In this document: piece after piece, positions 3,918 to 27,487 of the stretch
How the letters are laid out: each line of letters starts with the position of its first letter
Numbering within the stretch: position 1 is the first letter of the stretch
Assembly (NCBI RefSeq): GCF_000019605.1
Contig: NC_010482.1
Span: 990,001 to 1,022,000 of the forward strand
Length of the DNA stretch: 32,000 nucleotides
Origin: Candidatus Korarchaeum cryptofilum OPF8
Lineage (GTDB): Archaea > Korarchaeota > Korarchaeia > Korarchaeales > Korarchaeaceae
Reading direction: 5' to 3'
Program-made: the position numbers and the translations under genes
Notes under the pieces: model-generated
Database searches by the model: none
Seen by the model: only the letters and a program-made list of their open reading frames with translations
What the model was told of the DNA's origin: nothing

Positions 3918-4428
3918 CTATCCCCACTATACCTCCATTCTCTTGTATCAGGACCGCTTGGTAGTAGAGGAGCGCCTCCTTTATCAGTGCGACAGAAGTA
4001 TCCGGGGGGAATATTGGAAAAGGGCTCCCCATGACTTCCTCCACCAGCGTCTCCATCGATATAGAGCCCATCCTGTTTATTATCGCTTCCTCCGTCAATG
4101 AACCTACGACCTTCCCATTCGAAATCACCGGAAGTTGAGATATACCGTGCTCCTCCATGAGAGATATCGCCTTCTTCAAGCTATCCTTAGGGGAGACGCT
4201 TATGACGGGGGAGCTCATTATCTCCCTAGCTCTAGAGAGTCCTTTCTTTTCCCTCACGAGCTCCAGAGCTCTGATTATCCTCAAAGCTACATCGTAATTC
4301 GGGACCATCTGACCATTCTCCACCTTCGAAATGAGGGATTGGCTCACTCCGGCCATTTTTGCTAGCTCCCTCTGGCTTATCCCCAGCAATTTCCTTTCCT
4401 TTCCGAGGGAGCTCAGATCCCTCAGCAT
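3877..4428 (-). CDS. Transcriptional regulator: XRE-type HTH fused to a CBS-domain pair
   Basis: The N-terminal LLGISQRELAKMAGVSQSLISKVENGQMVPNYD is a classic Cro/C1 HTH. It is followed by two CBS-like repeats (IMSSPVISVSP...ISQLPV; VMGSPFPIFPP...GIVGIVTKSDL). Confidence 0.8.
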   Translation of the reverse strand: MLRDLSSLGKERKLLGISQRELAKMAGVSQSLISKVENGQMVPNYDVALRIIRALELVREKKGLSRAREIMSSPVISVSPKDSLKKAISLMEEHGISQLPVISNGKVVGSLTEEAIINRMGSISMETLVEEVMGSPFPIFPPDTSVALIKEALLYYQAVLIQENGGIVGIVTKSDLVRNLERI

Positions 4429-4468
4429 ATTCCTATTGGAATCATTTATTATTTAAACTTTTAAATCG

Positions 4469-5569
4469 GTGATTCTCGCCCCTACTATGTCAGATTTCTC
4501 GCCTATCGAGGTCCCAATATATATGACAGCTACTTTCCAGAATCCTCTACCTTCAGGAAAACCTAATATCTCCCGGAGGGGCAAGGAGTTGAAGTACTCG
4601 AGAGAAGAGAACCCGACTGTCGAGGAGCTCGAGAGGATAGTGGCTTCCCTCGATGGATACGATGATTGCTTGGCTTTCAACAGCGGTATGGCATCTATCT
4701 CAACGCTCTTCCTATCCAGGTACAGGAAGAGGATCGTGGTTAATTTAGATTCCTACTCGGCCACAGTAGGTTTGGCGCTCCGCCTAAAGGCTATGGGTTT
4801 CGATATCGAGATATGCAGCACCGATCATCTTGGGGAGTGCATCAAGCCGGGGAGCTTAGTCTTCACCGAATCGATAACGAATCCTCTACTCAGAGTACCT
4901 GATTTGGAGATGCTGAGGGATTCCTGCATAGATAAGGGCGCTGAATTCATCATAGATAACACATCTGCGACTCCTGTCCTGCTGAAACCCTCTCTCTTCT
5001 CAGATCTATCAATACAGAGCGCTACAAAGTACCTCAGTGGTACGAACGATACCGTGGGAGGAGTAGTATCCGGTAACGAATTATCAGAGTTATGGGAATG
5101 GAGGAGGGTCCTGGGGAGCATATTGGATCCATTCAGGGCGTTCCTCATAATTAGGGGGGTCAAAACTCTTGAACTCAGGATGAGGAGACATTGTGAGACA
5201 GCGCTTACTTTAGCTAGATGGCTCCAAGATCATCCCAAGGTGAAGGAGGTGATATATCCCGGATTGGAGACGCACAAAGATCATCAGATAGCTAAGAGGC
5301 TCCTCAAGGGATTCGGTGGGATTATTTCCTTCAGGATAAATGGGGATGCGAGGAAGTTCCTGATGAACCTCAGGAAGATAAAGAGAGCCACGAGCTTCGG
5401 AGCATCTATATCGCTAGCGAGCATACCTCATGGATCAGCTTCCTCTAACTTGACTGAGGACCTCATTAAGGCTAGTGGGATAGATGGGAGCTTGATAAGG
5501 CTCTCAGTTGGACTTGAGGATCCGGAAATTTTGATAGAGGACCTTGACTCTTCTCTGAAAGGAATTTAG
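4469..5569 (+). CDS. Cys/Met-metabolism PLP-dependent enzyme (cystathionine gamma-synthase / lyase / sulfhydrylase family)
   Basis: Family motifs YSREENPTVEELE and SATKYLSGTNDTVGG (PLP lysine), with a length of about 360 aa. The true start may be the ATG at 4487 (MSDFSP...). Confidence 0.85.
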   Translation: MILAPTMSDFSPIEVPIYMTATFQNPLPSGKPNISRRGKELKYSREENPTVEELERIVASLDGYDDCLAFNSGMASISTLFLSRYRKRIVVNLDSYSATVGLALRLKAMGFDIEICSTDHLGECIKPGSLVFTESITNPLLRVPDLEMLRDSCIDKGAEFIIDNTSATPVLLKPSLFSDLSIQSATKYLSGTNDTVGGVVSGNELSELWEWRRVLGSILDPFRAFLIIRGVKTLELRMRRHCETALTLARWLQDHPKVKEVIYPGLETHKDHQIAKRLLKGFGGIISFRINGDARKFLMNLRKIKRATSFGASISLASIPHGSASSNLTEDLIKASGIDGSLIRLSVGLEDPEILIEDLDSSLKGI

Positions 5570-18858: not shown

Positions 18859-18933
18859 TGCTCCGGCCGGGATTTGAACCCGGGTCTGGGGCTCGAGAGG
18901 CCCCTATGCTTGACCGGGCTACACCACCGGAGC
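18859..18933 (-). tRNA. tRNA-Glu (anticodon CUC)
   Basis: The reverse complement folds as acceptor GCTCCGG...CCGGAGC-A, anticodon stem GGGGC/GCCCC with loop CTCTCGA, and T-arm CCGGG-TTCAAAT-CCCGG. 75 nt. Confidence 0.9.
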
Positions 18934-18948
18934 CCAGGTGAGGGACAT

Positions 18949-19500
18949 ATGGGAAATATAAATATTTCGGGATTGATCGTAGTTATAGGCACTCCGGGAT
19001 CGGGGAAGACGAGGGTAGCTAAACTCATAGCTGAGAGTTTGGGATGTAGATATTTGAATGTTGGAGAGCTGTCGTTGGAGAAGGGCTACGTTCTGGGCAG
19101 GGATGAGGAGAGGGGATCCTATATAATAGATGAGGAGAGGGTCAGGGAGGAGTTATCTAGGATTGAAGATACTATCGTAGTTGAGACGATAAGCCCATAC
19201 GCGATCCCCCAGGACAAGGTCTCCTTAGTGATCGTTGTGAGATGCAGGCCTTCAATACTCCTCGAGAGGTTGAGGGAGAGAGGATATTCGAAGAGCAAGA
19301 TAAGGGAGAACTTGGAGTATGAAGCCATAGATGGGCCTCTCTTCGATGCCATGCAGATAGCTGATGTCGATAAGATAGTTGAGATAGATGGCTGTGAGGG
19401 AAATGATGAGGAAATTTATGATGCCCTGAGAGGTATTAAGAAAGGAGTTGGAAGGTTCAACTGGTCTCAGGATTTCCTCTCGATACTGGAGGAGATATGA
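18949..19500 (+). CDS. Fap7/AK6-like adenylate kinase / nucleoside-triphosphatase
   Basis: P-loop VIGTPGSGKT at residues 10-19, about 183 aa, with an archaeal putative adenylate kinase layout. I moved the start to the ATG at 18949 because the track ORF (18874) runs through the tRNA-Glu gene. Confidence 0.8.
   Translation: MGNINISGLIVVIGTPGSGKTRVAKLIAESLGCRYLNVGELSLEKGYVLGRDEERGSYIIDEERVREELSRIEDTIVVETISPYAIPQDKVSLVIVVRCRPSILLERLRERGYSKSKIRENLEYEAIDGPLFDAMQIADVDKIVEIDGCEGNDEEIYDALRGIKKGVGRFNWSQDFLSILEEI
18954..18967 (-). promoter_or_regulatory. TATA-like element for tRNA-Glu, embedded in codons 2-7 of the opposite-strand kinase gene
   Basis: aaatataaatattt is centred about 27 nt upstream of the tRNA-Glu 5' end (18933). 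This matches the spacing at both tRNA-Val genes. Confidence 0.45.
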
Positions 19501-19780: not shown

Positions 19781-20062
19781 ATGGCGAGGTATTCGATTGC
19801 TAGATTAGCTAATAAGCCTGTCATCACGGATCAGGGGCTCCTGCTAGGTGAGGTTACCGATTTAGTCGTTGATGAGATATCGGGAAAGGTGATATCGATA
19901 ATAATTAGAAGTAATAGGGGTGCCGCTGATGCATTACTGCAGAAACTGAAGAGAGATAGGAAGGGGAATGTCCTCATACCGTATTCTACAGTTAAGTACA
20001 TCAGGGAGATGATAGTAGTAGATGAGAGACTTCTGAAGGTTTACATAGCTACTAAGGGCTAA
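19781..20062 (+). CDS. PRC-barrel domain protein
   Basis: 93 aa. LANKPVITDQGLLLGEVTDLVVDEISGKVISIII is the typical PRC-barrel pattern. Confidence 0.75.
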   Translation: MARYSIARLANKPVITDQGLLLGEVTDLVVDEISGKVISIIIRSNRGAADALLQKLKRDRKGNVLIPYSTVKYIREMIVVDERLLKVYIATKG

Positions 20063-20319
20063 GATCTATTGATCCTCTTATATAGGAACTCAGCTATATC
20101 TTCAGATAAATTGGAGAGAGCATACTTCAGGCCCATCCTCCGATCTACCTCTAGGGATTCCTCTATCATCTTCACCCTATCCGGTCTACCTATCTCATCA
20201 TATATCTCCCTGAACAGATCTCTCAGCTCCTCCATTATCTCATCATCAGGACTTCCGAATATGGCCTGCCTCGAGAGGTACCTCAACTTGGAATTCAGTT
20301 GGAGCACTCGGTCGATCAT
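20059..20319 (-). CDS. Hypothetical small acidic helical protein
   Basis: 86-aa ORF with balanced composition. The fully overlapping plus-strand ORF is Ser/Leu/Ile-rich, which is typical of antisense artefacts. Confidence 0.5.
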   Translation of the reverse strand: MIDRVLQLNSKLRYLSRQAIFGSPDDEIMEELRDLFREIYDEIGRPDRVKMIEESLEVDRRMGLKYALSNLSEDIAEFLYKRINRS

Positions 20320-20379
20320 CCTATCATAAGCGAATCGCTTTTTAATCTGAATGCCCCGCGAAGCTTAGGTGAAAGTTAC

Positions 20380-20712
20380 TTGAGTAAAGTCAGGCTGAGT
20401 TCAGTTAGGAGTGATCCGATATTCGATATAAATATATTGAGTTTCGAATCACTGGATAGGTCGTTCGAGGCGACTCTGGAGTTTCCGAAGGGTCTCATCG
20501 ACCTGAAGGAGGGCATGGAGGCTGATTTAACGCTAGGAGAGGAGGGTGAGGGAGATATAATAATGAAAGGAGTTGTCTATAAATTTGATGATTCTTCCAG
20601 AACTATTGAAATATCTTTCCATGGGCTTCTGATGAAGTTGACTTACTCAAAAGCAGCGCCGTTCAAACTGAGCCAGGGAGAGGAGGTCTATCTAACGATA
20701 AAGTTTGCCTGA
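20380..20712 (+). CDS. rpoG: RNA polymerase subunit Rpo8 (RpoG)-like protein
   Basis: The C-terminal half (GVVYKFDDSSRTIEISFHGLLMKLTYSK...VYLTIKF) resembles, from memory, crenarchaeal Rpo8 (...TTIISLYGLLVKI...VYFCVKK). I chose the TTG at 20380 as the start: TATA-like ctttttaatc lies at 20337-20346 and SD-like AGGTGA at 20366-20371, whereas the track start at 20299 would overlap the divergent gene. Confidence 0.55.
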   Translation: MSKVRLSSVRSDPIFDINILSFESLDRSFEATLEFPKGLIDLKEGMEADLTLGEEGEGDIIMKGVVYKFDDSSRTIEISFHGLLMKLTYSKAAPFKLSQGEEVYLTIKFA

Positions 20713-20723
20713 TTGTGAAACTA

Positions 20724-20736
20724 TTTTTTTATTTTT
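20724..20736 (+). terminator. Oligo-T tract (T7-A-T5) downstream of rpo8
   Basis: tttttttattttt starts 12 nt after the rpo8 stop, and archaeal termination commonly uses T-runs. A TATA-like gattaatattt (about 20748-20758) follows, about 26 nt before the ATG at 20780. Confidence 0.4.
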
Positions 20737-20779
20737 CTGGAGGAAAAGATTAATATTTGTGAGCATAAATACCATCGTG

Positions 20780-21373
20780 ATGGAAGAGGAGTTCTTAGGG
20801 ACGGGTTTCGAGGGATACGGGAAGCTCCCTGAAGTAAGGAATAGGGCCCTCGATGAGATAATTAAAGAGCTGGGGCTCCCTGAGGAAGTTGAGAGGCTGG
20901 CGAGCGAATTATTCAGAAGATATAGGGTTAGCGGGAAGCGGATGCGCCTGGCAGCTGTAGCTAGTGTATCTTTAGCGAGCAGGATATATGGATTCGCTAT
21001 TCCCGTCAGGAAGATAATGGAGGAAGCTGGGATTAGGGCATCGCGTAGGGCTTTACTCAGATCCCTGAGCAATATGAAGAGCGGCGGAGTCCAATGGGAC
21101 TCCTACCTCAACTATGTCTTGATGAAGGTAGGAAGGGAGCTGCCGCCTTTAGTTAGGGAGAGGCTCATGATAAACGCTAAGAGAGAGATGGCGAAAATCC
21201 TGAGGAGAAGGGAGCTTCTGTTGGGGCGTAATCCCATTCATATAGCAGCTTTAGCTGTTTACTTCGCATCCAGGAGGATCGGCCTCCGGATTCCGATGAA
21301 AGAGATAGCTTTAAGCCTGGGCGTGAGTGTTAGCTCAATTAATAGGGTGAAGAGGCTGATTAGAGATGGATGA
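20780..21373 (+). CDS. TFB/TFIIB core-domain-only paralog (two cyclin-like repeats; no Zn-ribbon, B-reader or B-linker)
   Basis: Repeat 1: LGLPEEVERLASELFRRYRVSGKRMRLAAVASVSLASRIYGFAIPVRKIMEEAG. Repeat 2: LVRERLMINAKREMAKILRRRELLLGRNPIHIAALAVYFASRRIGLRIPMKEIALSLGVSVSSINRVKRLI. Both align with the TFB cyclin folds and the C-terminal HTH. The ATG at 20780 is preferred because the track extension covers the T-tract and TATA. Confidence 0.7.
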   Translation: MEEEFLGTGFEGYGKLPEVRNRALDEIIKELGLPEEVERLASELFRRYRVSGKRMRLAAVASVSLASRIYGFAIPVRKIMEEAGIRASRRALLRSLSNMKSGGVQWDSYLNYVLMKVGRELPPLVRERLMINAKREMAKILRRRELLLGRNPIHIAALAVYFASRRIGLRIPMKEIALSLGVSVSSINRVKRLIRDG

Positions 21374-21500
21374 GGAGTTCTTCTTCGAGATAGAGACTTT
21401 GAAGAATCAGATAGAGTATCTATTCTTCAAACTTGAGGAAGTGATGAGGAGGATAGAGTCTATCGAGGAGAGGATCTCCAGGATGGAGGGAGAGAGATGA
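21366..21500 (+). CDS. 44-aa coiled-coil micro-protein (not in the ORF track)
   Basis: Manual translation: MDEEFFFEIETLKNQIEYLFFKLEEVMRRIESIEERISRMEGER. It has heptad-like periodicity. It overlaps the upstream gene by 8 nt and the downstream ATPase by ATGA. Confidence 0.45.
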   Translation: MDEEFFFEIETLKNQIEYLFFKLEEVMRRIESIEERISRMEGER

Positions 21501-23134
21501 AGAGGGAAGATTTGGATGTTTACTTATTAATCGCAGCTCTAATGATCCTATTGTTTTATAAGAATTACGGAAATATATTGAAAATTTTAATGAACTTATC
21601 GATATATTTAGTCATGATACTCGCTGCCGCATCCTTCATCATCCTGATCAAGATGAGGAGGCTATTGCCCCGTAGGGGCCCCCTAGTAGTTCCAGCTAGG
21701 CTCTCTGTTTATGATAAAGACGCTAATATAAACCTGAATAAGTTGAAAGATATTGCAGAAGGAATGGGATTGAGGATAATATTTTTAATATCGATTGGGA
21801 GGAGCGGACTGATGGGGAGGAGCCCCGGGAAGGTTGCGTACAAAGTGCTCCTCCTGGGGAAGGATAGAGAGATGATAAGAGCGGGAGCTTCAGCTATAAA
21901 CAGTACCTCAGAAGGGTTCAAGATAGAGCTCATGGAGAGGAACTTGAATCCCGATCTGGCTCAGGAAATAATTGAAATTTGCGACGAGAGTGAGGTGGCA
22001 TCTATAGGTGTTGGAAGGAACCCTGAGAGGGATGAGCCCTTGCTGGAGCTCGGGGAGAGGAAAGGTAGGGTCATAGGAATTCCTGTAGGCGAGTTAACTA
22101 AGCATATCCTCGTGATCGGGCAGACAGGATCTGGAAAAACGACGACAGTCAAGAGAATTATCTATGAAGCCTGGAACCTTGGGATACCATCCTTAGTGCT
22201 CGACTCCCACTGGGAGTATCGGAACTTGATCTTCGGGATGGGGGGCAGGATATTCTGCAGTAGAGCGGGATATCCGCAGATATGCATAAATCCGCTGATT
22301 TCAATACCTAAAGGGGAGAAGGAAATATTCCTGGTAGCTGAGACGTTATCCTCCCTCCTAGATCTCACACCCTCCCAGTTCTACTTACTCCTGAAGGCTT
22401 TAAGAAGGCTGAGCGATATCTCAAGTGAGAAAAATCCGCCAAATATGTACGATTTACTGATGGAGATTAAGGGTTTCTCGACGAGCTCCCAACCTGAGGA
22501 GGAGAGCAGAGCTTCGCTCGTGAGGAAGCTTGAGCCATTAGTCTCCGGGGATGGGGAGGCGATTTTCAAATGTGATAATATACTCTCAACCGGTTTTGAG
22601 GAAGTCCCCACACTCCTGGAGTTAGGGGATGTAGAGAGCGACCTTCAGAAGCGGCTAATAGCGTTCTTTACTTTGAAAAGGATAAAGGATTATTACATAA
22701 GGGAGGAGGCCAAGTCCAGATATCCTAAGCTAATAGTTGTCCTCGAGGAAGCTGAAAAGTTGATCCCGTATTATAAGGATCAGATAGGCATGGAGCTCAT
22801 CAGTAGGCTATTCGCAGAGCTCAGGAAGTTCGGAGTCGCACTAGTATTGGTCTCCCAGAGCCTCTCTGAGATACCTGAAGGAGCTGTGAGGAACACTGGA
22901 ATTAAGATAATCCATAAGGTCGAATCCCCGAGCGACCTAAAGTTCCTGAGGACCTTCATGAGGGAGAAGAATATTGTGGATAAAATACTGACTCTAGCTC
23001 CCGGCGAGTGTATAATGAATTTTCCTGGAGGCGTAGAGAGCTTGCAAGTGAGATCCGTGGATGAACTGCCGCTCAGCAGGGAGTCTGTAGATGAGGTCAT
23101 CATGATGAACTCATTCTATTGGATCTCGAGATGA
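21497..23134 (+). CDS. Membrane-anchored P-loop ATPase of the HerA/FtsK/VirB4 (DUF87-like) clade
   Basis: Two N-terminal TM helices (YLLIAALMILLFY; LSIYLVMILAAASFIILI). Walker A ILVIGQTGSGKTTT, then PSLVLDSHWEY, Walker B KLIVVLEEAEKL, and RKFGVALVLVSQS. Confidence 0.8.
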   Translation: MKREDLDVYLLIAALMILLFYKNYGNILKILMNLSIYLVMILAAASFIILIKMRRLLPRRGPLVVPARLSVYDKDANINLNKLKDIAEGMGLRIIFLISIGRSGLMGRSPGKVAYKVLLLGKDREMIRAGASAINSTSEGFKIELMERNLNPDLAQEIIEICDESEVASIGVGRNPERDEPLLELGERKGRVIGIPVGELTKHILVIGQTGSGKTTTVKRIIYEAWNLGIPSLVLDSHWEYRNLIFGMGGRIFCSRAGYPQICINPLISIPKGEKEIFLVAETLSSLLDLTPSQFYLLLKALRRLSDISSEKNPPNMYDLLMEIKGFSTSSQPEEESRASLVRKLEPLVSGDGEAIFKCDNILSTGFEEVPTLLELGDVESDLQKRLIAFFTLKRIKDYYIREEAKSRYPKLIVVLEEAEKLIPYYKDQIGMELISRLFAELRKFGVALVLVSQSLSEIPEGAVRNTGIKIIHKVESPSDLKFLRTFMREKNIVDKILTLAPGECIMNFPGGVESLQVRSVDELPLSRESVDEVIMMNSFYWISR

Positions 23135-23579
23135 TGGCTCCCTCAATGATCCATGGTGAAATTCGTGAAGCAGGTGTTAGAAACTGCTTCCATTTAGCGT
23201 AAGTTTAATAACTTCAGTGATGCTGAGTTTAAAATAATGATCCCATTTTCGAGCCGTGCCCGATATGTGAGGAAAAGCCCGGATGAGACGGGCAGAGAAG
23301 AGAGATGTGAGGGATTCGTCCGTTCACCCCGAAGGCCCTATGAGAGAAGGGATAAAAGTTAATGCTAAACCAGAACGGCGGGTCAGTACTCAAGATCATC
23401 TTCATAGTTCAGCGGGCCGTTTACCTCATCCACCGCCTGTTGGAGAGATTTCGGAGGGATAATTTAAAGATTGAGCTGGTCCGCTTTCTAGAGTGATCCC
23501 CCCATGAGCTTGAATAGATTCTCGGGGAACTCGCCGGGGCTTCAAGAATATTTTTAAGCCCGAAGTTAGGTGATGTAGT

Positions 23580-23921
23580 ATGGATGATAGGATTATCAGG
23601 GATTTGAGCGATATCATAAGGAGGGTAAAGGCCGGTGAAGAGGTGGATAAGAGTAAGATCGAGGGGATAAGGAAGTCTATATCCGAAGTGGAGGATCCCA
23701 TCCTCAGGAAGCATCTCCTCACCCTAGTTGAGGAGATAGATCAGGGTTATGAGGATGGGGATATCTTGAGCAAGTTGATCCTGCATGAGAGCTCGGAGGT
23801 GAATAAGTTGAGGAGCGCTATCCTCGAGTTCATATATGAGGAACCCTTTGAAGGACTAGATCTCAAACAGACTTTGGAGTTCTGGAGGAGAGTTTTGGAA
23901 TCTCTTGAGAGGAAAAAATAA
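23580..23921 (+). CDS. Hypothetical acidic helical protein
   Basis: 113-aa ORF. A TATA-like atattttta lies about 28 nt upstream. No family motif. The antisense ORFs (23421..23722) look spurious. Confidence 0.5.
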   Translation: MDDRIIRDLSDIIRRVKAGEEVDKSKIEGIRKSISEVEDPILRKHLLTLVEEIDQGYEDGDILSKLILHESSEVNKLRSAILEFIYEEPFEGLDLKQTLEFWRRVLESLERKK

Positions 23922-24023
23922 AATACTTTTACCAATTTGCATCAATTCTATATTTGAGTATCTCCGTGATTGAGGAATATATCCGATAGCAGATGATACA
24001 TAGCGCTCCTTGAGAGAGTTTCA

Positions 24024-25163
24024 CTAAATTTTACTGCCCTTTATCGAGTACCTGCCCGTTTCAGTCTTATAGACGAGCCCTTCCCTCATTAGCTCCGAGA
24101 TCAAGGCATTAGCCTCGATCAGCTTCAAACCCCAGACCCTTGAGGCCTCCAGTAATGAAAAAGATGTTCCCGGTGGGAATCTCTTCCTTAGGGCATCGAA
24201 CTCTTCCTTTAAACCATCAGGCACTTTTTCCTCTAAGATCCCTCCTTCGGGTGGGGTTTCCTTGCCCTCATCCGCTGACTTAACTATTTGAAGGACTTTC
24301 TCCTTGCTCAATTTCCCGCTTTCCCTCAATTCCTTAGTCAACATAGCTAAGACATTTCTAGCAAGCTTCATCAACTTCCTAGGATTTCCTCCCGCCATTT
24401 CATTCATCTTAATGACTAGGTCCTCTGTGAATGGTTCATCTAACCCGAAGTCCCTAGCTTCCTTGTTCATCAAAGCTCTATAATATTCTAACCTTTTCTT
24501 CAGGATCCTGCTAGCTTCAGCAGGGCTGAGCCTCCTCATCTCGATCTTCTCATGGGGGACATCTATGAGCCTCTTCATTATATCGTAGGCTGGAGGGATG
24601 CAGCCTATGACTATTGCTTTACCCCCATTGAGTCCTTGGAAGATCCTTGAGATAGCTTTAGAGAAGAGCTCAGCGTCCTTCCTGGTCCCAAATACGACAA
24701 CGTTCTCTACTTCATCTAGGAGGAGGACTGCCAGATCATAGCTATTGAGCTCATCTACTATGATCTCCATCAACTGATCGGGATCCTTGGGAATCCTCCT
24801 CTTCAGCAGCTTGGCAGGTATTCCGCTCTTGACCACATGGGCGATCCTGTATATAGCTGTGTTGAAATCATCGACATCTATCTTAACATAGAACGTGGAG
24901 GCCTCCTCCAATATTTCACCGATTAGCCTCAATCTATGAGTTTTCCCCGTTCCGAACTCCCCAACTAGGAAAATTAACCTCTTCTCCCCATCCCTGATGA
25001 CCTTATCGAGAATATCAGCTAATTTCTCGTCTATATCAGTATCCACATGAACTTCCTTAACTTCCTCAAGGCTCTCACTGCTTAAATAAGCGAAAGGGTT
25101 TGCTCTAAGCATCCATCTCAGATAGCCAGCCTCAATCACCTTGATGTCACTCTCATCAGGCAT
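24024..25163 (-). CDS. Divergent Orc1/Cdc6-like AAA+ ATPase with C-terminal winged helix
   Basis: Walker A VGEFGTGKTH and Walker B VLLLDEVE. The sensor-2-like GGNPRKLMKLARNVL is comparable to GNARIALKILFSAARL in the bona fide Orc1 at 26339. A C-terminal wHTH-like segment is present (SLLEASRVWGLKLIEANALISELMREGLVYK). It lacks the canonical P..L.HRE N-terminal motif. Confidence 0.7.
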   Translation of the reverse strand: MPDESDIKVIEAGYLRWMLRANPFAYLSSESLEEVKEVHVDTDIDEKLADILDKVIRDGEKRLIFLVGEFGTGKTHRLRLIGEILEEASTFYVKIDVDDFNTAIYRIAHVVKSGIPAKLLKRRIPKDPDQLMEIIVDELNSYDLAVLLLDEVENVVVFGTRKDAELFSKAISRIFQGLNGGKAIVIGCIPPAYDIMKRLIDVPHEKIEMRRLSPAEASRILKKRLEYYRALMNKEARDFGLDEPFTEDLVIKMNEMAGGNPRKLMKLARNVLAMLTKELRESGKLSKEKVLQIVKSADEGKETPPEGGILEEKVPDGLKEEFDALRKRFPPGTSFSLLEASRVWGLKLIEANALISELMREGLVYKTETGRYSIKGSKI

Positions 25164-25257
25164 TTATTTACCCTCTCTCACTTCCCCAAGTTGAGTGACG
25201 TATTGAATTTATATATGCTTCTATCCAGTAAAAAATGCTATACGACTCCAGGGTAAG

Positions 25258-26265
25258 GTGACTTCGATGGAAAAAGTTAAGGGAGTGATAATAGTCTCTC
25301 TCGCCCTTATGACGCTCCTGGCTCCTCTGATCTTGGCTGATGCAGATATCCTATCCGATAAGCCCTACTATATCACTACTGAGCTCAGAGTTTTCTTCCA
25401 AACGGAATCAAAAGCGACGCTCATCCTCAATTACAGCTGGTACGGGATGATGGCAAATGATATCGAGAATTTACTCTCAAAATACCCAGGAGGGGAGGAA
25501 AACTACACGAAAGGTTTCATCGATTATGTGAAGAATAACGTGAATGGCCCATTCATAGCAGGGGACTTCGAATTCTACCCCACTAAGATGGAAGCTAAGA
25601 TATCGAGGGAAAAAGAGGGGAATTATACGAAGAGAGTGAGTTTAACGCTCACAGTGGAGCTAGAGGCTAGGAAAGGGGCTCCCAAGATAAGCCAAGGGAG
25701 GAAGGGTATCATCTATTCCACTAGGGAGGATATGTGCAATTTATCGAAGATATATGTGAAGGAGGTAGATCTCCTGAACGTATCGGTGGTCCTTCCCAAG
25801 GATTACGTGATAAGCGTAGTTAGACCCACACCTAACTCAGTATACACAGTCAACTCGAGCGATGGCATGAGGGTAGTGGCTTCCTGGATCATAAGGAATC
25901 CATTAGTTGACACTAGGGGGACAACAGGGTACAGCGGTTGGTTCTTCATAGGAGCTGTGAATCTGACGAAGGATGAAGTTGAGAAGTTAAACTCCTTGAG
26001 GAGGAGCATATCGGACCTGAGGAAGCAAGCCTTAATTCCTCTAGATGAGAGTGGAAAAGCTAAAGCTAGGGAACTCTTCGACTTATTTTACTGGTACTCC
26101 ACTAGAGCCCCGTATTCCCTGAACAGGAGCCTGGACTATGCATTGAGCCTAGCTAATGGGATACCTAAGCTACCGGTCAGTTTAGATACTATCGTCCTGA
26201 TAATATCCGCTCTAATCGTGATCGCCGAGATAGTCTTTTATTTTGTGAGAACTAGGAGGGGGTAA
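25258..26265 (+). CDS. Predicted type-I surface (glyco)protein: N-terminal signal/TM, C-terminal TM anchor, 8 N-x-S/T sequons
   Basis: N-terminal VIIVSLALMTLLAPLILA and C-terminal IVLIISALIVIAEIVFYFV followed by RTRRG. Sequons: NYS, NYT (x2), NLS, NVS, NSS, NLT, NRS. The start could be the GTG at 25258 or the ATG at 25267. Confidence 0.6.
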   Translation: MTSMEKVKGVIIVSLALMTLLAPLILADADILSDKPYYITTELRVFFQTESKATLILNYSWYGMMANDIENLLSKYPGGEENYTKGFIDYVKNNVNGPFIAGDFEFYPTKMEAKISREKEGNYTKRVSLTLTVELEARKGAPKISQGRKGIIYSTREDMCNLSKIYVKEVDLLNVSVVLPKDYVISVVRPTPNSVYTVNSSDGMRVVASWIIRNPLVDTRGTTGYSGWFFIGAVNLTKDEVEKLNSLRRSISDLRKQALIPLDESGKAKARELFDLFYWYSTRAPYSLNRSLDYALSLANGIPKLPVSLDTIVLIISALIVIAEIVFYFVRTRRG

Positions 26266-26302
26266 TACTTTCGCATACCCCTCCCCTGTCATGTAGTGCC
26301 GA

Positions 26303-26320
26303 AATGAAATTAATTTCATT
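26303..26320. promoter_or_regulatory. Perfect 18-bp palindrome AATGAAATT|AATTTCATT upstream of orc1/cdc6
   Basis: Read directly from the sequence. It lies 19 nt before the orc1/cdc6 start and 38 nt after the stop of the 25258 gene. Confidence 0.5.
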
Positions 26321-26338
26321 AAGGCCCTTAGCCTGGGT

Positions 26339-27487
26339 GTGACCATACCTATAGTGAGGGATCCCAGGTTCTTCTCCGACTCATATACCCCGAGCAAGCT
26401 GCCTCATAGGGAGAAAGAGGTTGAGATTCTCTATAATACTCTATCATCAGGATATGAGCTAAATGAAGGCCTCGCTCTACTGAAAGGGGAGCCAGGGATA
26501 GGTAAAACATCAGTAGCAAAGCTATCGGCTAGCAAGCTCTCAAATCTAGGTATTGGAACGGTCCATATAAATTGCAGGACTTATCGCTCCCCTTCTTCCG
26601 CCCTTCAAAAGATAATAGCTTCTATAATCCCTGGAGTTCCCGAGAGGGGGCTCAGCTATGAGGAAATGGTCCTGATGCTGGAGAAGATAATGAGCAGAGA
26701 GGGAAAGCCTCTCCTCATAATATTGGATGAGATAGAGTACTTGAGGGAGGGGGAGACCCTAGTATACACGCTTTTGAGGCTTCATGAGGGCGGAGCGACT
26801 AAGAGCCCAACTTTAGTTGCTGTAGCGAGGTGGGATCCTCCATACACATTGGATGATTCCATCAAGAGCTTCATGATACTCAAGCTAACTTTAGAAAAGT
26901 ATAACGCTTCGCAGTTATACGATATACTAGATTATAGGGCTTCTGAGGCATTGTATGATGGAAGCTATGACTCCAATACGATAGAGAAGGTAGTTGAGCT
27001 TTCTAAGCACACTGGGAACGCTAGGATAGCTTTGAAAATACTCTTCTCCGCTGCGAGGCTCGCTGAAGAGAGGGGCATGAGCTTGATAACCCCGGATTTG
27101 GTTAGCGAGGCGGCAGCGAGGATAGGCGTAGTTGGGATAACCGAGGACTCCCTGATGCCGCTGGATACTCACGATAAGTTACTACTCTTAGCTGCCGCTA
27201 GAAGGTTAGCGATGACCAGTAGGGGATGGATAAAGATGGGAGACCTCTTGGAGGAATATAAGCTCATATGCGAGGAGCTAGGCGTTATCCCCTACAAATA
27301 TACTGCGGTGTGGAAGAGAGTGAGGGAGTTGAGGAACATGGGGTTCATGGAGGCGAAGCGTAGCGGTGAAGGAATGAAGGGACAGTCTACGCTAATTTCG
27401 TTGGGCTCGATTCCAGCGGAGAGGCTGGCGGAGAAGCTCAAGGAGATTTTGAGAGAGGATTTAAGCCCCCTTCCCTCCAGCTTCTAA
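26339..27487 (+). CDS. cdc6: Orc1/Cdc6 replication initiator
   Basis: N-terminal YTPSKLPHREKEVEIL, Walker A LKGEPGIGKTS, Walker B LLIILDEIEYL, sensor-2 GNARIAL, and a C-terminal winged helix. GTG start. Confidence 0.9.
   Translation: MTIPIVRDPRFFSDSYTPSKLPHREKEVEILYNTLSSGYELNEGLALLKGEPGIGKTSVAKLSASKLSNLGIGTVHINCRTYRSPSSALQKIIASIIPGVPERGLSYEEMVLMLEKIMSREGKPLLIILDEIEYLREGETLVYTLLRLHEGGATKSPTLVAVARWDPPYTLDDSIKSFMILKLTLEKYNASQLYDILDYRASEALYDGSYDSNTIEKVVELSKHTGNARIALKILFSAARLAEERGMSLITPDLVSEAAARIGVVGITEDSLMPLDTHDKLLLLAAARRLAMTSRGWIKMGDLLEEYKLICEELGVIPYKYTAVWKRVRELRNMGFMEAKRSGEGMKGQSTLISLGSIPAERLAEKLKEILREDLSPLPSSF

Follow-up and report, generated by a model that had tools for sequence, protein, structure and literature searches.

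A CedD-like membrane ATPase gene chained by overlaps to those of a micro-protein and a TFB paralogue in Korarchaeota: a possible relative of the crenarchaeal TFB3-CedD module

The DNA analysed here (the window) is a 32,000-nt stretch of the genome of Ca. Korarchaeum cryptofilum OPF8, and the coordinates of the trio given below are positions within it. Three overlapping genes lie on the plus strand: ORF1 (20780..21373, 197 aa), a TFB paralogue consisting of the core only (two cyclin repeats and a C-terminal HTH); ORF2 (21366..21500), an acidic, amphipathic coiled-coil micro-protein of 44 aa; and ORF3 (21497..23134, 545 aa), a membrane-anchored, CedD-like ATPase of the HerA/VirB4 superfamily, identical in sequence to ACB07752.1/WP_012309649.1 of the same organism. 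As stated in the preliminary description, the trio is chained by overlaps, with 8 nt shared by ORF1 and ORF2 and an ATGA joining ORF2 to ORF3. Upstream lies a gene for an rpoG/Rpo8-like RNA polymerase subunit (20299..20712, plus strand), whose translation probably begins downstream of the TTG at 20299. The trio had been placed directly after rpo8, and its position is indeed as described, but the rpo8 call is marginal (Pfam Rpb8/RpoG 25.7 bits against a cutoff of 25; RpbG E=5e-3). An RpbG-annotated gene occupies the same position in L021, L104, L105 and L106, and the immediate upstream neighbour of the trio is always rpoG, which ties ORF1 to the transcription apparatus. The trio does not, as had been proposed, lie directly before an Orc1-like ATPase: the Orc1-like AAA_22 gene is 890 nt downstream on the minus strand, with a 113-aa ORF between. 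An RNase P-like motif in the spacer at 23135-23580, GAGGAAAAGCCCGG, was rejected (no Rfam RNase P match at E<=1; folding z-scores of -1.4 and 0.0).

An oligo-T tract after the rpoG stop, TTTTTTTATTTTT (20724..20736, plus strand, read from the sequence), is probably the archaeal terminator of rpoG; eight loci have a T-rich tract at the matching place. It is followed by a BRE/TATA-like element, AAAAGA plus TTAATATT (20744..20757, plus strand), located 23-36 nt 5' of the ORF1 ATG, and the TATA-like element previously noted ahead of the operon is real, with TTAATATT at 20750-20757. The pattern AAGAAA-n2-3-TTAATAT recurs in loci with diverged flanks (the window, L001, L002, L018, L020, L021 and L104), and the distance from the AAGAAA-like BRE and TATA-like element to the ORF1 start is constant in 8 orthologous loci. 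We take the element to be a putative promoter, and its spacing from the ATG implies a leaderless or short-leader transcript. The conserved BRE/TATA stands ahead of ORF1 only, and SD-like GAGG/GGAGG motifs stand ahead of ORF2 and ORF3. The block of rpoG, TFB-like gene, micro-ORF and ATPase gene, with its overlaps, co-occurs across 10 korarchaeal loci in which ATPase identity falls to ~29%. The trio genes overlap or are separated by gaps of <=4 nt in the window, L001, L002, L018, L019, L020 and L104; the micro-ORF is frameshifted in L021; and the trio is also present in the deep-branching L105 (Ca. Methanodesulfokora) and in L106. Genes flanking the trio differ between loci. The overlaps are kept where the flanks are rearranged. 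The genes form a conserved, tightly coupled unit, as the earlier description had it.

ORF1 had been described as having both TFB cyclin repeats and the HTH while lacking the Zn-ribbon, B-reader and B-linker, and Pfam, a PDB profile search and the AF2 model with Foldseek all bear this out. It matches the Pfam TFIIB family PF00382 above cutoff in two stretches (45.4 bits, cutoff 23.6), and its profile aligns with the TFIIB core in the PDB across both repeats (E=4e-14). The AF2 model (pLDDT 76) contains 2x5 helices, the first from residue 22, and its top Foldseek match is the archaeal TFB core 1ais_B, with 1d3u_B matched as well. Against the NCBIfam TFB model, residues 23-194 correspond to profile positions 130-303 of 312, with a score of 24.7 (cutoff 384). 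Between the rpoG stop and the ORF1 ATG there are only 67 nt, too few for a Zn-ribbon. The B-reader and B-linker are absent, with ~20 residues before repeat 1, even in those orthologues that do carry the ribbon. The orthologues form 15 clusters, 7 of which have a Zn-ribbon (P0042, whose start is cut off, among them); by locus it is absent from the window, L001, L019, L021 and L106 and present in L002, L018, L020, L104 and L105. Because about half of the korarchaeal orthologues retain the ribbon, its absence from ORF1 is a lineage-specific, derived loss. At the positions with which TFIIB contacts the BRE, residues are not conserved in ORF1, according to the alignment from the PDB profile search. 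The TFB-paralogue/RPC34 context of Blombach 2009 was considered and is unrelated.

ORF2 belongs to a family of 16 independent protein clusters of 41-51 aa, all of them korarchaeal, and is known from this operon only. It carries the motif E-I/L-E..L..QIEYLFFKL-D/E-E, with Q15, I16, F20 and F21 invariant in an alignment of 6 orthologues, and is preceded by a GAGG motif 11-14 nt 5' of its start. These invariant residues, an identity of 39-57% across lineages and the number of independent clusters argue that ORF2 is a real gene rather than a chance reading frame. Searches of Pfam and NCBIfam with ORF2 returned no family.

The N-terminal membrane anchor of ORF3 comprises two hydrophobic helices at aa 8-52 (21518..21652, plus strand). 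Kyte-Doolittle segments at aa 10-28 and 33-51 and AF2 helices at 4-22, 24-33 and 35-53 (model pLDDT 79) agree with one or two TM helices here, and the ORF3 orthologues and true CedDs likewise have 1-2 such hydrophobic segments. In the model, the anchor is followed by an alpha/beta domain (63-165) and then the ATPase domain (182-537). The Walker A, Walker B and RKFG..VLVSQ motifs read from the sequence beforehand are all in place (all on the plus strand) and conserved in 23 orthologues: the P-loop GQTGSGKTT (aa 208-216, 22118..22144) with G208-T215 invariant, VVLEEAE (aa 414-420, 22736..22756) with E417, E418 and E420 invariant, and the third motif (aa 443-454, 22823..22858), in which R443, K444, F445, G446 and Q454 are invariant and which aligns to ExRKFGxGLCxVTQS of CedD. 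ORF3 scores 43.8 bits against Pfam DUF87 (PF01935, cutoff 23.2), and Foldseek matches its model to HerA and VirB4 at E<=1e-15 (HerA 4d2i, E=6e-17; VirB4 4ag6, TMt 0.73, rmsd 4.3 A). By DUF87 score, Walker motifs and fold, ORF3 is a P-loop ATPase of the HerA/FtsK superfamily, and NCBIfam, Foldseek and the TM segments uphold the view that it is a membrane-anchored, HerA/VirB4-type and Ced-related protein.

The comparison originally offered for ORF3 was CedB and VirB4, but its closest family in NCBIfam is CedD. The CedD model NF053655 (an equivalog) gives ORF3 138.9 bits, with aa 191-510 covering profile positions 207-515 of 527, a score that tops the ranking and yet falls far below the cutoff of 600; true CedDs score 659-746. 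The other models compared lie much lower, with HerA at 45.5-49.7 bits (cutoffs 800-970), CedB at 28.3 (700) and VirB4_CagE at 26 (643). The intermediate relatives, too, all have CedD as their top family, in a graded series of 746, 563, 276 and 139 bits. A profile-profile comparison (hhalign) of the ORF3 family with true CedD gives a probability of 100% (E=1e-44, 31% identity over 331 columns) and spans the ATPase domain only (ORF3 181-537 versus 191-529); the N-terminal domain falls outside the alignment. In a neighbour-joining tree the groups separate but their order is not fixed, since deep nodes, including the placement of CedD, have <60% bootstrap.

CedD was described in 2025 (PMC11868833, PMC11823120) and is essential for DNA import (PMC11823120, PMC11868833). 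Its architecture of an N-terminal TM anchor, an N-terminal domain and a C-terminal HerA/VirB4-like ATPase (PMC11868833) is shared by ORF3, which like CedD (SiRe_1715 / Saci_0667) has a TM anchor and a ~130-aa N-terminal domain before the ATPase, in a total of ~530-570 aa. CedD is characterised by an N-terminal domain with homology to a portion of that of VirB4; among the top 50 Foldseek matches of ORF3, a VirB4 N-terminal domain was sought and none was found. No Ced system has been reported from korarchaeotes. TedD, the "HerA-like helicase" of Thermoproteales Ted clusters, is likewise a CedD-family ATPase with a conjugation-like DNA import apparatus (PMC11823120, PMC9905601), but it adjoins TedA, TedB and TedC, none of which is near the korarchaeal trio; CedA, CedB, VirB4 and pilin genes are similarly absent from the 32-kb window. 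The bacterial T4SS ATPases VirB4 and VirD4 share the P-loop superfamily with ORF3, and the ATPase domain superposes best on 4ag6 of VirB4, while the coupling protein VirD4 has an N-terminal membrane anchor as ORF3 does; however, the sequence scores are negligible, the TrwB domain match is to the P-loop only, and there are no T4SS partners.

Linkage between TFB paralogues and this ATPase family is not confined to Korarchaeota. Among 37 informative crenarchaeal loci, defined as those in which the CedD-like gene is complete and its flank long enough, 25 have a TFB3-family gene (recognised by a TFB Zn-ribbon) within 2 kb of cedD. In 13 of these the pair converges on an intervening thermosome gene, in 4 it lies tail-to-tail, and in 8 it is co-directional and abutting. 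This linkage agrees with published locus tags (tfb3, SiRe_1717/Saci_0665; cedD, SiRe_1715/Saci_0667), although it is not mentioned in the cited Ced/TFB3 papers. The idea that tfb3 and cedD of Sulfolobales lie side by side in one operon was discarded, the genes there being convergent with the thermosome gene between, whereas in Korarchaeota the genes point the same way, overlap and include a micro-ORF as well. Six loci considered as cedD loci (L003, L005, L007, L008, L013 and L014) were also set aside, as they proved to be canonical HerA repair operons or to encode an unrelated ATPase of 986 aa. TFB3 is an activator of ced and ups genes and sits on the promoter of cedD (PMC6101594); TFB3-dependent induction by DNA damage is a trait of CedD. 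The preliminary claim that no described system has this composition was too strong, since TFB3 is a known activator of cedD that binds its promoter; in both settings, a TFB paralogue without a B-reader is genomically linked to the ATPase gene.

TFB3, the crenarchaeal TFB paralogue of the DNA-damage response, is described as a protein that bears the ribbon, lacks the B-finger and has a truncated core/HTH with a coiled-coil, and its Zn-ribbon is essential for its function in Sulfolobus (PMC6101594). ORF1 differs from it in keeping both cyclin repeats and the HTH and in lacking the very ribbon that TFB3 needs, while the ribbon-bearing korarchaeal orthologues share the ribbon and the missing B-finger with TFB3 but have a full core. 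The TFB-like groups T1, T2, T3 and the korarchaeal family can be joined in an hhalign chain (T1-T2, 100%, E=6e-54; T1-T3, 99.5%, E=3e-22; T3-korarchaeal, 95%, E=3e-8). The last match, with a probability of ~95%, is confined to the ribbon and a 41-column stretch of repeat 2/HTH, both short, and could reflect common TFB descent instead of specific kinship with TFB3. In a comparison with the PDB, whose method differs from that hhalign comparison, the T3 C-terminus found no canonical TFB. The korarchaeal TFB-like HMM had no match in the cedD loci at E<=1e-3, so the link exists at the profile-profile level only. The korarchaeal TFB-like protein is a probable relative of TFB3 and not a TFB3 itself.

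The gene order has a parallel in the T3-type pairs of Desulfurococcales and Sulfolobales MAGs (L067, L071, L077-L082, L085, L089, L090 and L092), in which a 217-231-aa TFB3-like protein abuts a CedD-like ATPase of ~509 aa; the cited Ced/TFB3 papers make no mention of them. As in Korarchaeota, the TFB paralogue comes first and the genes are co-directional with a gap of -19 to +12 nt, and the top family of the ATPase is CedD (259-276 bits). The pairs differ in having no micro-ORF, no TM anchor on the ATPase and a degenerate C-terminal repeat in the TFB-like protein. The micro-ORF is neither the detached C-terminal tail of the T3 proteins nor the TFB3 coiled-coil (hhalign probability <=3%).

Our preferred reading, to which we give a probability of about one half, is that the trio represents, in Korarchaeota, the TFB3-CedD module known from DNA exchange in Crenarchaeota, with the translocase co-expressed with a TFB-paralogue regulator. 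One leaderless transcript, starting just past the conserved BRE/TATA element, would encode all three products. The first would be a paralogue of the TFB3 lineage that has kept the TBP/DNA-binding cyclin core and HTH, the B-reader and B-linker having been lost everywhere in the lineage and the Zn-ribbon also in the K. cryptofilum branch. It would most likely act at promoters, that of its own operon included, and in its ribbon-less form as a modulator that occupies TBP/BRE and not as a recruiter of RNAP. The 44-aa protein would be a coiled-coil accessory and family-specific partner of the TFB paralogue, of the ATPase or of both. The ATPase, of hexameric type and closest in sequence to CedD, the motor on which DNA import in Sulfolobales depends, would most likely translocate DNA at the membrane, both the DNA substrate and the direction of transport being presumed. 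A transcription factor that is a regulator and nothing more would not usually be coupled in translation to a membrane ATPase, and the lack in K. cryptofilum ORF1 of the ribbon essential to TFB3 in Sulfolobus (PMC6101594) speaks against the TFB3/CedD reading, as do the sub-cutoff CedD score of ORF3 and the absence of CedA, CedB, VirB4 and pilin genes from the window.

The trio would then be a divergent korarchaeal form of a TFB3/CedD-type module, with a putative function. Were the TFB3-CedD reading correct, the range of the CedD-type DNA-import ATPase, until now confined in published reports to Crenarchaeota, would extend to Korarchaeota, which would suggest that the module predates the split between the two. 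The physical linkage of TFB3-family genes and cedD in many genomes would tighten the argument for TFB3-Ced "co-evolution", formerly one of co-occurrence only. The korarchaeal proteins, which combine a ribbon with an intact cyclin core and have no B-reader, would be plausible as an intermediate from which TFB3 arose and would help to explain its unrecognised C-terminal part. Moreover, the overlapping trio with its phylum-specific micro-protein would offer a compact, testable system for asking whether a paralogue of a basal factor can work with or on a membrane DNA motor.

Another way to view the trio is closer to the physical device of DNA recognition plus translocase first envisaged, in which the micro-protein and the TFB core (TBP-bound or not) would be attached to the ATPase as stoichiometric subunits, serving as a DNA-recognition or loading module in place of a relaxosome/coupling complex and not in transcription. 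Stop/start overlaps conserved in 10 loci point to co-translation in similar amounts, at least two losses of the RNAP-binding ribbon have spared the DNA/TBP-binding core and the HTH, and the micro-protein is restricted to this operon; co-directional, abutting TFB3-family and CedD-like genes occur in the T3-type MAGs, and no relaxase is known for the Ced/Ted systems of archaea (PMC9905601). However, TFB3 acts as an activator bound to promoters in the only case studied (PMC6101594), the genes in most crenarchaeal loci are convergent and not co-translated, and ORF1 does not conserve the BRE-contact residues of TFIIB. We consider a subunit role unlikely, and find it harder still to credit the wider proposition that the TFB core and the 44-aa protein are physical subunits of a CedD-type membrane translocase, forming a module for DNA recognition or loading that descends from a promoter factor, and that TFB3/CedD linkage across Thermoproteota marks an ancestral complex and not only a regulator and its target. 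Homology to TFB3 makes the arrangement of regulator plus target the more economical reading, and the physical device is less likely. The overlaps would equally fit a circuit in which the ATPase and the small, coiled-coil, adaptor-like ORF2 sequester or release the TFB paralogue at the membrane, much as anti-sigma factors or partner switches do, and thereby let DNA translocation feed back on transcription; the known regulatory role of TFB3 (PMC6101594) is compatible with it. Such a circuit is purely inferential, and we regard it as very improbable. We know of no precedent for it in archaeal TFB biology.

The TFB3-CedD reading must also be weighed against one in which the ATPase is no motor of DNA exchange at all, being instead a generic HerA-type enzyme for double-strand-break repair or for defence against phages, or else an ATPase of a pilus or secretion system, with the neighbouring TFB gene a matter of inherited synteny and not of functional coupling. 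HerA structures are the top Foldseek matches and give the best E-values for ORF3, and synteny among korarchaeal genomes is broad around this locus. Canonical archaeal HerA, which belongs to the same superfamily, sits in mre11-nurA-herA-rad50 operons and has no TM helices, whereas ORF3 has a TM anchor instead, lacks a HAS-barrel match and lies in another operon context; with the low scores of the HerA models, this shows that ORF3 is not an ordinary HerA. Weak PADLOC matches (mad8 74 bits, HerA <=59 bits, the best at 59) are generic, the neighbours have no match, and an anti-phage HerA system was rejected, the locus having no defence partners and lying among housekeeping genes. The persistence of the overlaps despite rearranged flanks and the independent TFB3-cedD linkage in Crenarchaeota also weigh against mere synteny, and we think a motor unrelated to DNA exchange improbable. 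The nearest relatives without TFB linkage (P0027 and P0028) are found at the end of Tad/type-IV-pilus-like clusters, which fits a pilus or secretion ATPase. The genes upstream of the nearest non-korarchaeal relatives of the ATPase (L102 and L103), considered as possible TFB-like or micro-ORF homologues and rejected, encode TadB/C-like membrane proteins and Flp-type pilins.

The three genes form a tightly chained unit: ORF1, encoding a TFB-like protein of 197 aa, lies at 20780-21373 (+), ORF2, encoding a 44-aa micro-protein, at 21366-21500 (+), and ORF3, encoding a CedD-like ATPase of 545 aa, at 21497-23134 (+). The overlaps between them, 8 nt for ORF1/ORF2 and ATGA for ORF2/ORF3, are as the preliminary description had them, and GAGG/GGAGG stands ahead of both ORF2 and ORF3. 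Upstream of ORF1, the stop codon of the Rpo8-like gene rpoG is followed by an oligo-T tract and then by AAAAGA-TTAATATT, 23-36 nt before the ATG. Because the same layout is repeated in eight orthologous loci whose DNA has diverged elsewhere, we infer a separate transcript, leaderless or with a short leader, that would span all three genes.

A co-conservation survey found that the grouping recurs across Korarchaeota. The order rpoG, TFB-like gene, micro-ORF, ATPase gene, with the genes overlapping or lying ≤4 nt apart, is found at loci L001, L002, L018, L019, L020 and L104. It extends to two deep-branching lineages: in L105 (Ca. Methanodesulfokora) a ribbon-bearing TFB-like gene is accompanied by a coiled-coil ORF of 37 aa that overlaps the start of the ATPase gene, and in L106 the TFB-like gene is without a ribbon and the small ORF is weaker. 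Identity of the ATPases to ORF3 falls as low as ~29% among these loci. A block comprising Cdc6, 335-aa, AAA_22 and 113-aa genes, downstream of the trio in the window, is upstream of it in other Korarchaeum-like loci, and in L105 and L106 the neighbours differ from those of the Korarchaeum-like loci. Since the flanks vary in this way, the trio appears to be maintained by selection and not by general synteny alone.

ORF2 is a genuine gene. We found no family for it in Pfam or NCBIfam, and its 16 clusters (41-51 aa) are all korarchaeal; the orthologues are 39-57% identical, with Q15, I16, F20 and F21 invariant. In L021 (4860-5010) the micro-ORF starts out as VEEELLFEI..., after which the conserved QLEYLFFKLEEV motif goes on in a different frame, probably reflecting a 1-nt indel in an assembly of ~10x coverage rather than a pseudogene.

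The assignment of ORF1 as a TFB core held up. It exceeds the Pfam TFIIB cutoff (45.4 bits, in two stretches) and aligns with positions 130-303 of the 312 in the NCBIfam TFB model, while its family profile matches the TFIIB/TFB cores of human, yeast and Pyrococcus (E=4e-14). Its AF2 model (pLDDT 76) shows two repeats of five helices each, and structurally it comes closest to the TFB core of P. woesei in the TBP/TATA complex (1ais_B, 24% identity). On these matches ORF1 is a TFB core plus HTH, with nothing N-terminal to the core. The Zn-ribbon, B-reader and B-linker are thus all absent from ORF1, as first described, but across the family only the last two are missing: a TFB ribbon (CPxCG...CxxCG) opens the orthologues at L002, L018, L020, L104 and L105, as it does 7 of the 15 protein clusters. 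Just ~20 residues separate that ribbon from repeat 1, so the entire korarchaeal family is without B-reader and B-linker. The ribbonless state in K. cryptofilum is a secondary loss, one that took place at least twice.

ORF3 is identical to ACB07752.1/WP_012309649.1 (Ca. Korarchaeum cryptofilum OPF8), whose sole annotation is 'ATP-binding protein'; this identity assigns the window to that genome. One or two N-terminal hydrophobic helices are followed by an alpha/beta domain of ~100 residues and a HerA/VirB4-type ATPase, which exceeds the Pfam DUF87 cutoff; the Walker A (GQTGSGKTT), Walker B (VVLEEAE) and RKFG..VLVSQ motifs reported earlier are all present and invariant across 23 orthologues. Foldseek matched it to HerA (E=6e-17) and, when TM-score is considered, to the ATPase domain of VirB4 (0.73). 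Among curated NCBI models CedD is top at 139 bits, against ≤50 for HerA, 28 for CedB and 26 for VirB4. An exhaustive search with the korarchaeal ATPase profile recovered the true CedD equivalogs P0127 and P0138 (746 and 723 bits, both on the CedD model). Compared profile to profile, the korarchaeal family and CedD match with 100% probability (E=1e-44, 31% identity) over the ATPase domain only, for which reason we claim no CedD kinship for the N-terminal domain. Two 2025 papers describe CedD (SiRe_1715, Saci_0667) as a HerA/VirB4-like ATPase bound to the membrane that has both a TM and an N-terminal domain, is DNA-damage-induced and is essential for DNA import; its homologues within Thermoproteales Ted clusters are termed TedD (PMC11868833, PMC11823120).

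Scores against the CedD model are graded, from 659-746 bits in Sulfolobales through 510-563 and 259-276 in the crenarchaeal arrangements T2 and T3 to 139 in Korarchaeota. In a neighbour-joining tree the korarchaeal clade (90%), CedD sensu stricto (96%) and T3 (100%) are supported, with between-group order below 60%, and canonical HerA falls outside all three, so that a grouping with ordinary HerA, which would have spoken against the original proposal, was not seen. Given the graded scores and the weak group order, these comparisons justify the label 'CedD-like' for ORF3, but not 'a CedD'.

The TFB paralogue TFB3 co-occurs with Ced, sits on the cedD (herA1) promoter and acts as an activator of both ced and ups genes (PMC6101594). 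Its gene (SiRe_1717/Saci_0665) carries locus tags near those of cedD. We sampled 80 cedD-like metagenome loci, 37 of which had a full-length ATPase and enough flank; in 25 of these a TFB-Zn-ribbon protein of 160-230 aa is encoded within 2 kb of the cedD-like gene. T1 (13 loci, Sulfolobales type) is convergent with a thermosome gene between, T2 (4 loci) is tail-to-tail, and T3 (8 loci, Desulfurococcales and Sulfolobales MAGs) is co-directional and abuts a CedD-like ATPase without TM. This linkage, a by-product of our analysis, is widespread, and the TFB3/Ced papers that were read make no mention of it, or of Korarchaeota. L043 (~4128-4772, +) and L046 (~4144-4734, +) have, besides the TFB3 gene in tail-to-tail position, a further ORF (196-214 aa) just upstream of cedD and co-directional with it, whose product begins with a ribbon-like CPKCG...C.H and contains a long charged coiled-coil.

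The T1-T3 proteins all pass Pfam Zn_Ribbon_TF and, compared as sets (T1 with T2, 100%, E=6e-54; T1 with T3, 99.5%, E=3e-22), form a single family, TFB3. The T3 profile matches the korarchaeal TFB-like family over the end of cyclin repeat 2 and the HTH (95%, E=3e-8), and those of T1 and T2 align with it on the ribbon. Since a search of the PDB with the T3 C-terminus found no canonical TFB, the korarchaeal family may bridge the TFB core and TFB3-like proteins; we regard the link as moderate, given the shortness of the matched segments and the different methods behind the two comparisons. TFB3 reportedly lacks HTH and core. Its C-terminal half in T1/T2 (L022-L053) faintly matches the Pfam TFIIB repeat (E=0.09), and these proteins align full-length with those of T3, whose C-terminus matches TFB repeat-2/HTH; what has been called the TFB3 'coiled-coil' may represent a cyclin repeat that has degenerated.

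We put at roughly 50% the reading in which the trio is one operon of a CedD-type membrane DNA translocase and a TFB3-lineage paralogue working at promoters. In ribbon-bearing species the paralogue could touch RNAP in a TFB3-like manner; in K. cryptofilum it would be limited to occupying TBP/BRE-DNA, as modulator or competitor, and ORF2 would be a lineage-specific coiled-coil partner. The preliminary description had instead coupled the TFB core physically to the translocase as a DNA-recognition device. Such a device, which we consider unlikely, draws on the coupled translation, on the way the genes are arranged in T3 and on the fact that the ribbon was lost repeatedly while the core was retained, and that interpretation is kept only in part, in favour of regulator plus translocase. 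A sequestration circuit seems highly improbable, and a role other than DNA exchange quite improbable.

The genes around the trio are housekeeping (Cdc6, RFC, S2, amino-acid metabolism), no Ced, Ted or T4SS partner genes were found in the 32-kb window, and PADLOC returned generic HerA matches without partners. The canonical HerA genes of the first scan lie in mre11-nurA-herA-rad50 operons. The nearest ATPase relatives without a TFB-like neighbour, P0027 and P0028, are the final genes of Tad/type-IV-pilus-like clusters with a T2SSE ATPase, TadB/C-like proteins and a Flp-type pilin, a context more suggestive of a DNA or pilus process at the cell surface than of repair. The trio is best read as a variant of the TFB3/CedD module, one not described before in Korarchaeota and set apart by the coupling of its three genes; the role proposed for it draws on homology and context.

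Several further features were observed. At L102 (925-5689) and L103 (17-5293) a TM-less CedD-like ATPase ends the pilus-like cluster, which has two TadB/C-like membrane proteins and the pilin motif G/xxxxEE. The C-terminal coiled-coil tail of P0028 has a weak match to the HMM of the micro-ORF (E=1e-5, against a very small search set), which may be compositional. In Sulfolobales (L022-L035) cedD is preceded by the genes for ribosomal S17e, a ThiS-like protein and a 121-aa protein, S17e and an AAA_18 kinase lie downstream of the CedD-like gene at L103 (7971-8201), and the kinase abuts the ATPase in most Korarchaeota, L102 and L106; such recurrence across phyla may be deep synteny supporting orthology. 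In K. cryptofilum the kinase (18874-19500) is upstream of the trio, and the 113-aa ORF, the AAA_22 'Orc1-like' gene (24024-25163, -), the 335-aa gene and Cdc6 (26339-27487) are downstream (23135-27487), sides that are reversed in L018-L021. That an Orc1/Cdc6 paralogue has stayed close to a TFB3-like/CedD-like unit deserves notice, since tfb3 of Sulfolobus is under Orc1-2 control (PMC6061795). A tRNA-Glu (18859-18933, -) overlaps the 5' end of the longest kinase ORF, whose true start is probably an internal Met (MGNINISG...). Between rpoG and a PRC-barrel gene lies an 86-aa ORF without a family (20059-20319, -), conserved in position, at 85-98 aa, in every Korarchaeum-like locus. The 445-nt spacer that follows the ATPase gene contains a sub-threshold C/D-box sRNA candidate at 23380-23433 (-; snoPyro_CD, 20.6 bits, E=0.074) with C box GAUGA and D box CUGA; elsewhere it gave neither significant structure (z = -1.4, 0.0) nor an RNase P match.
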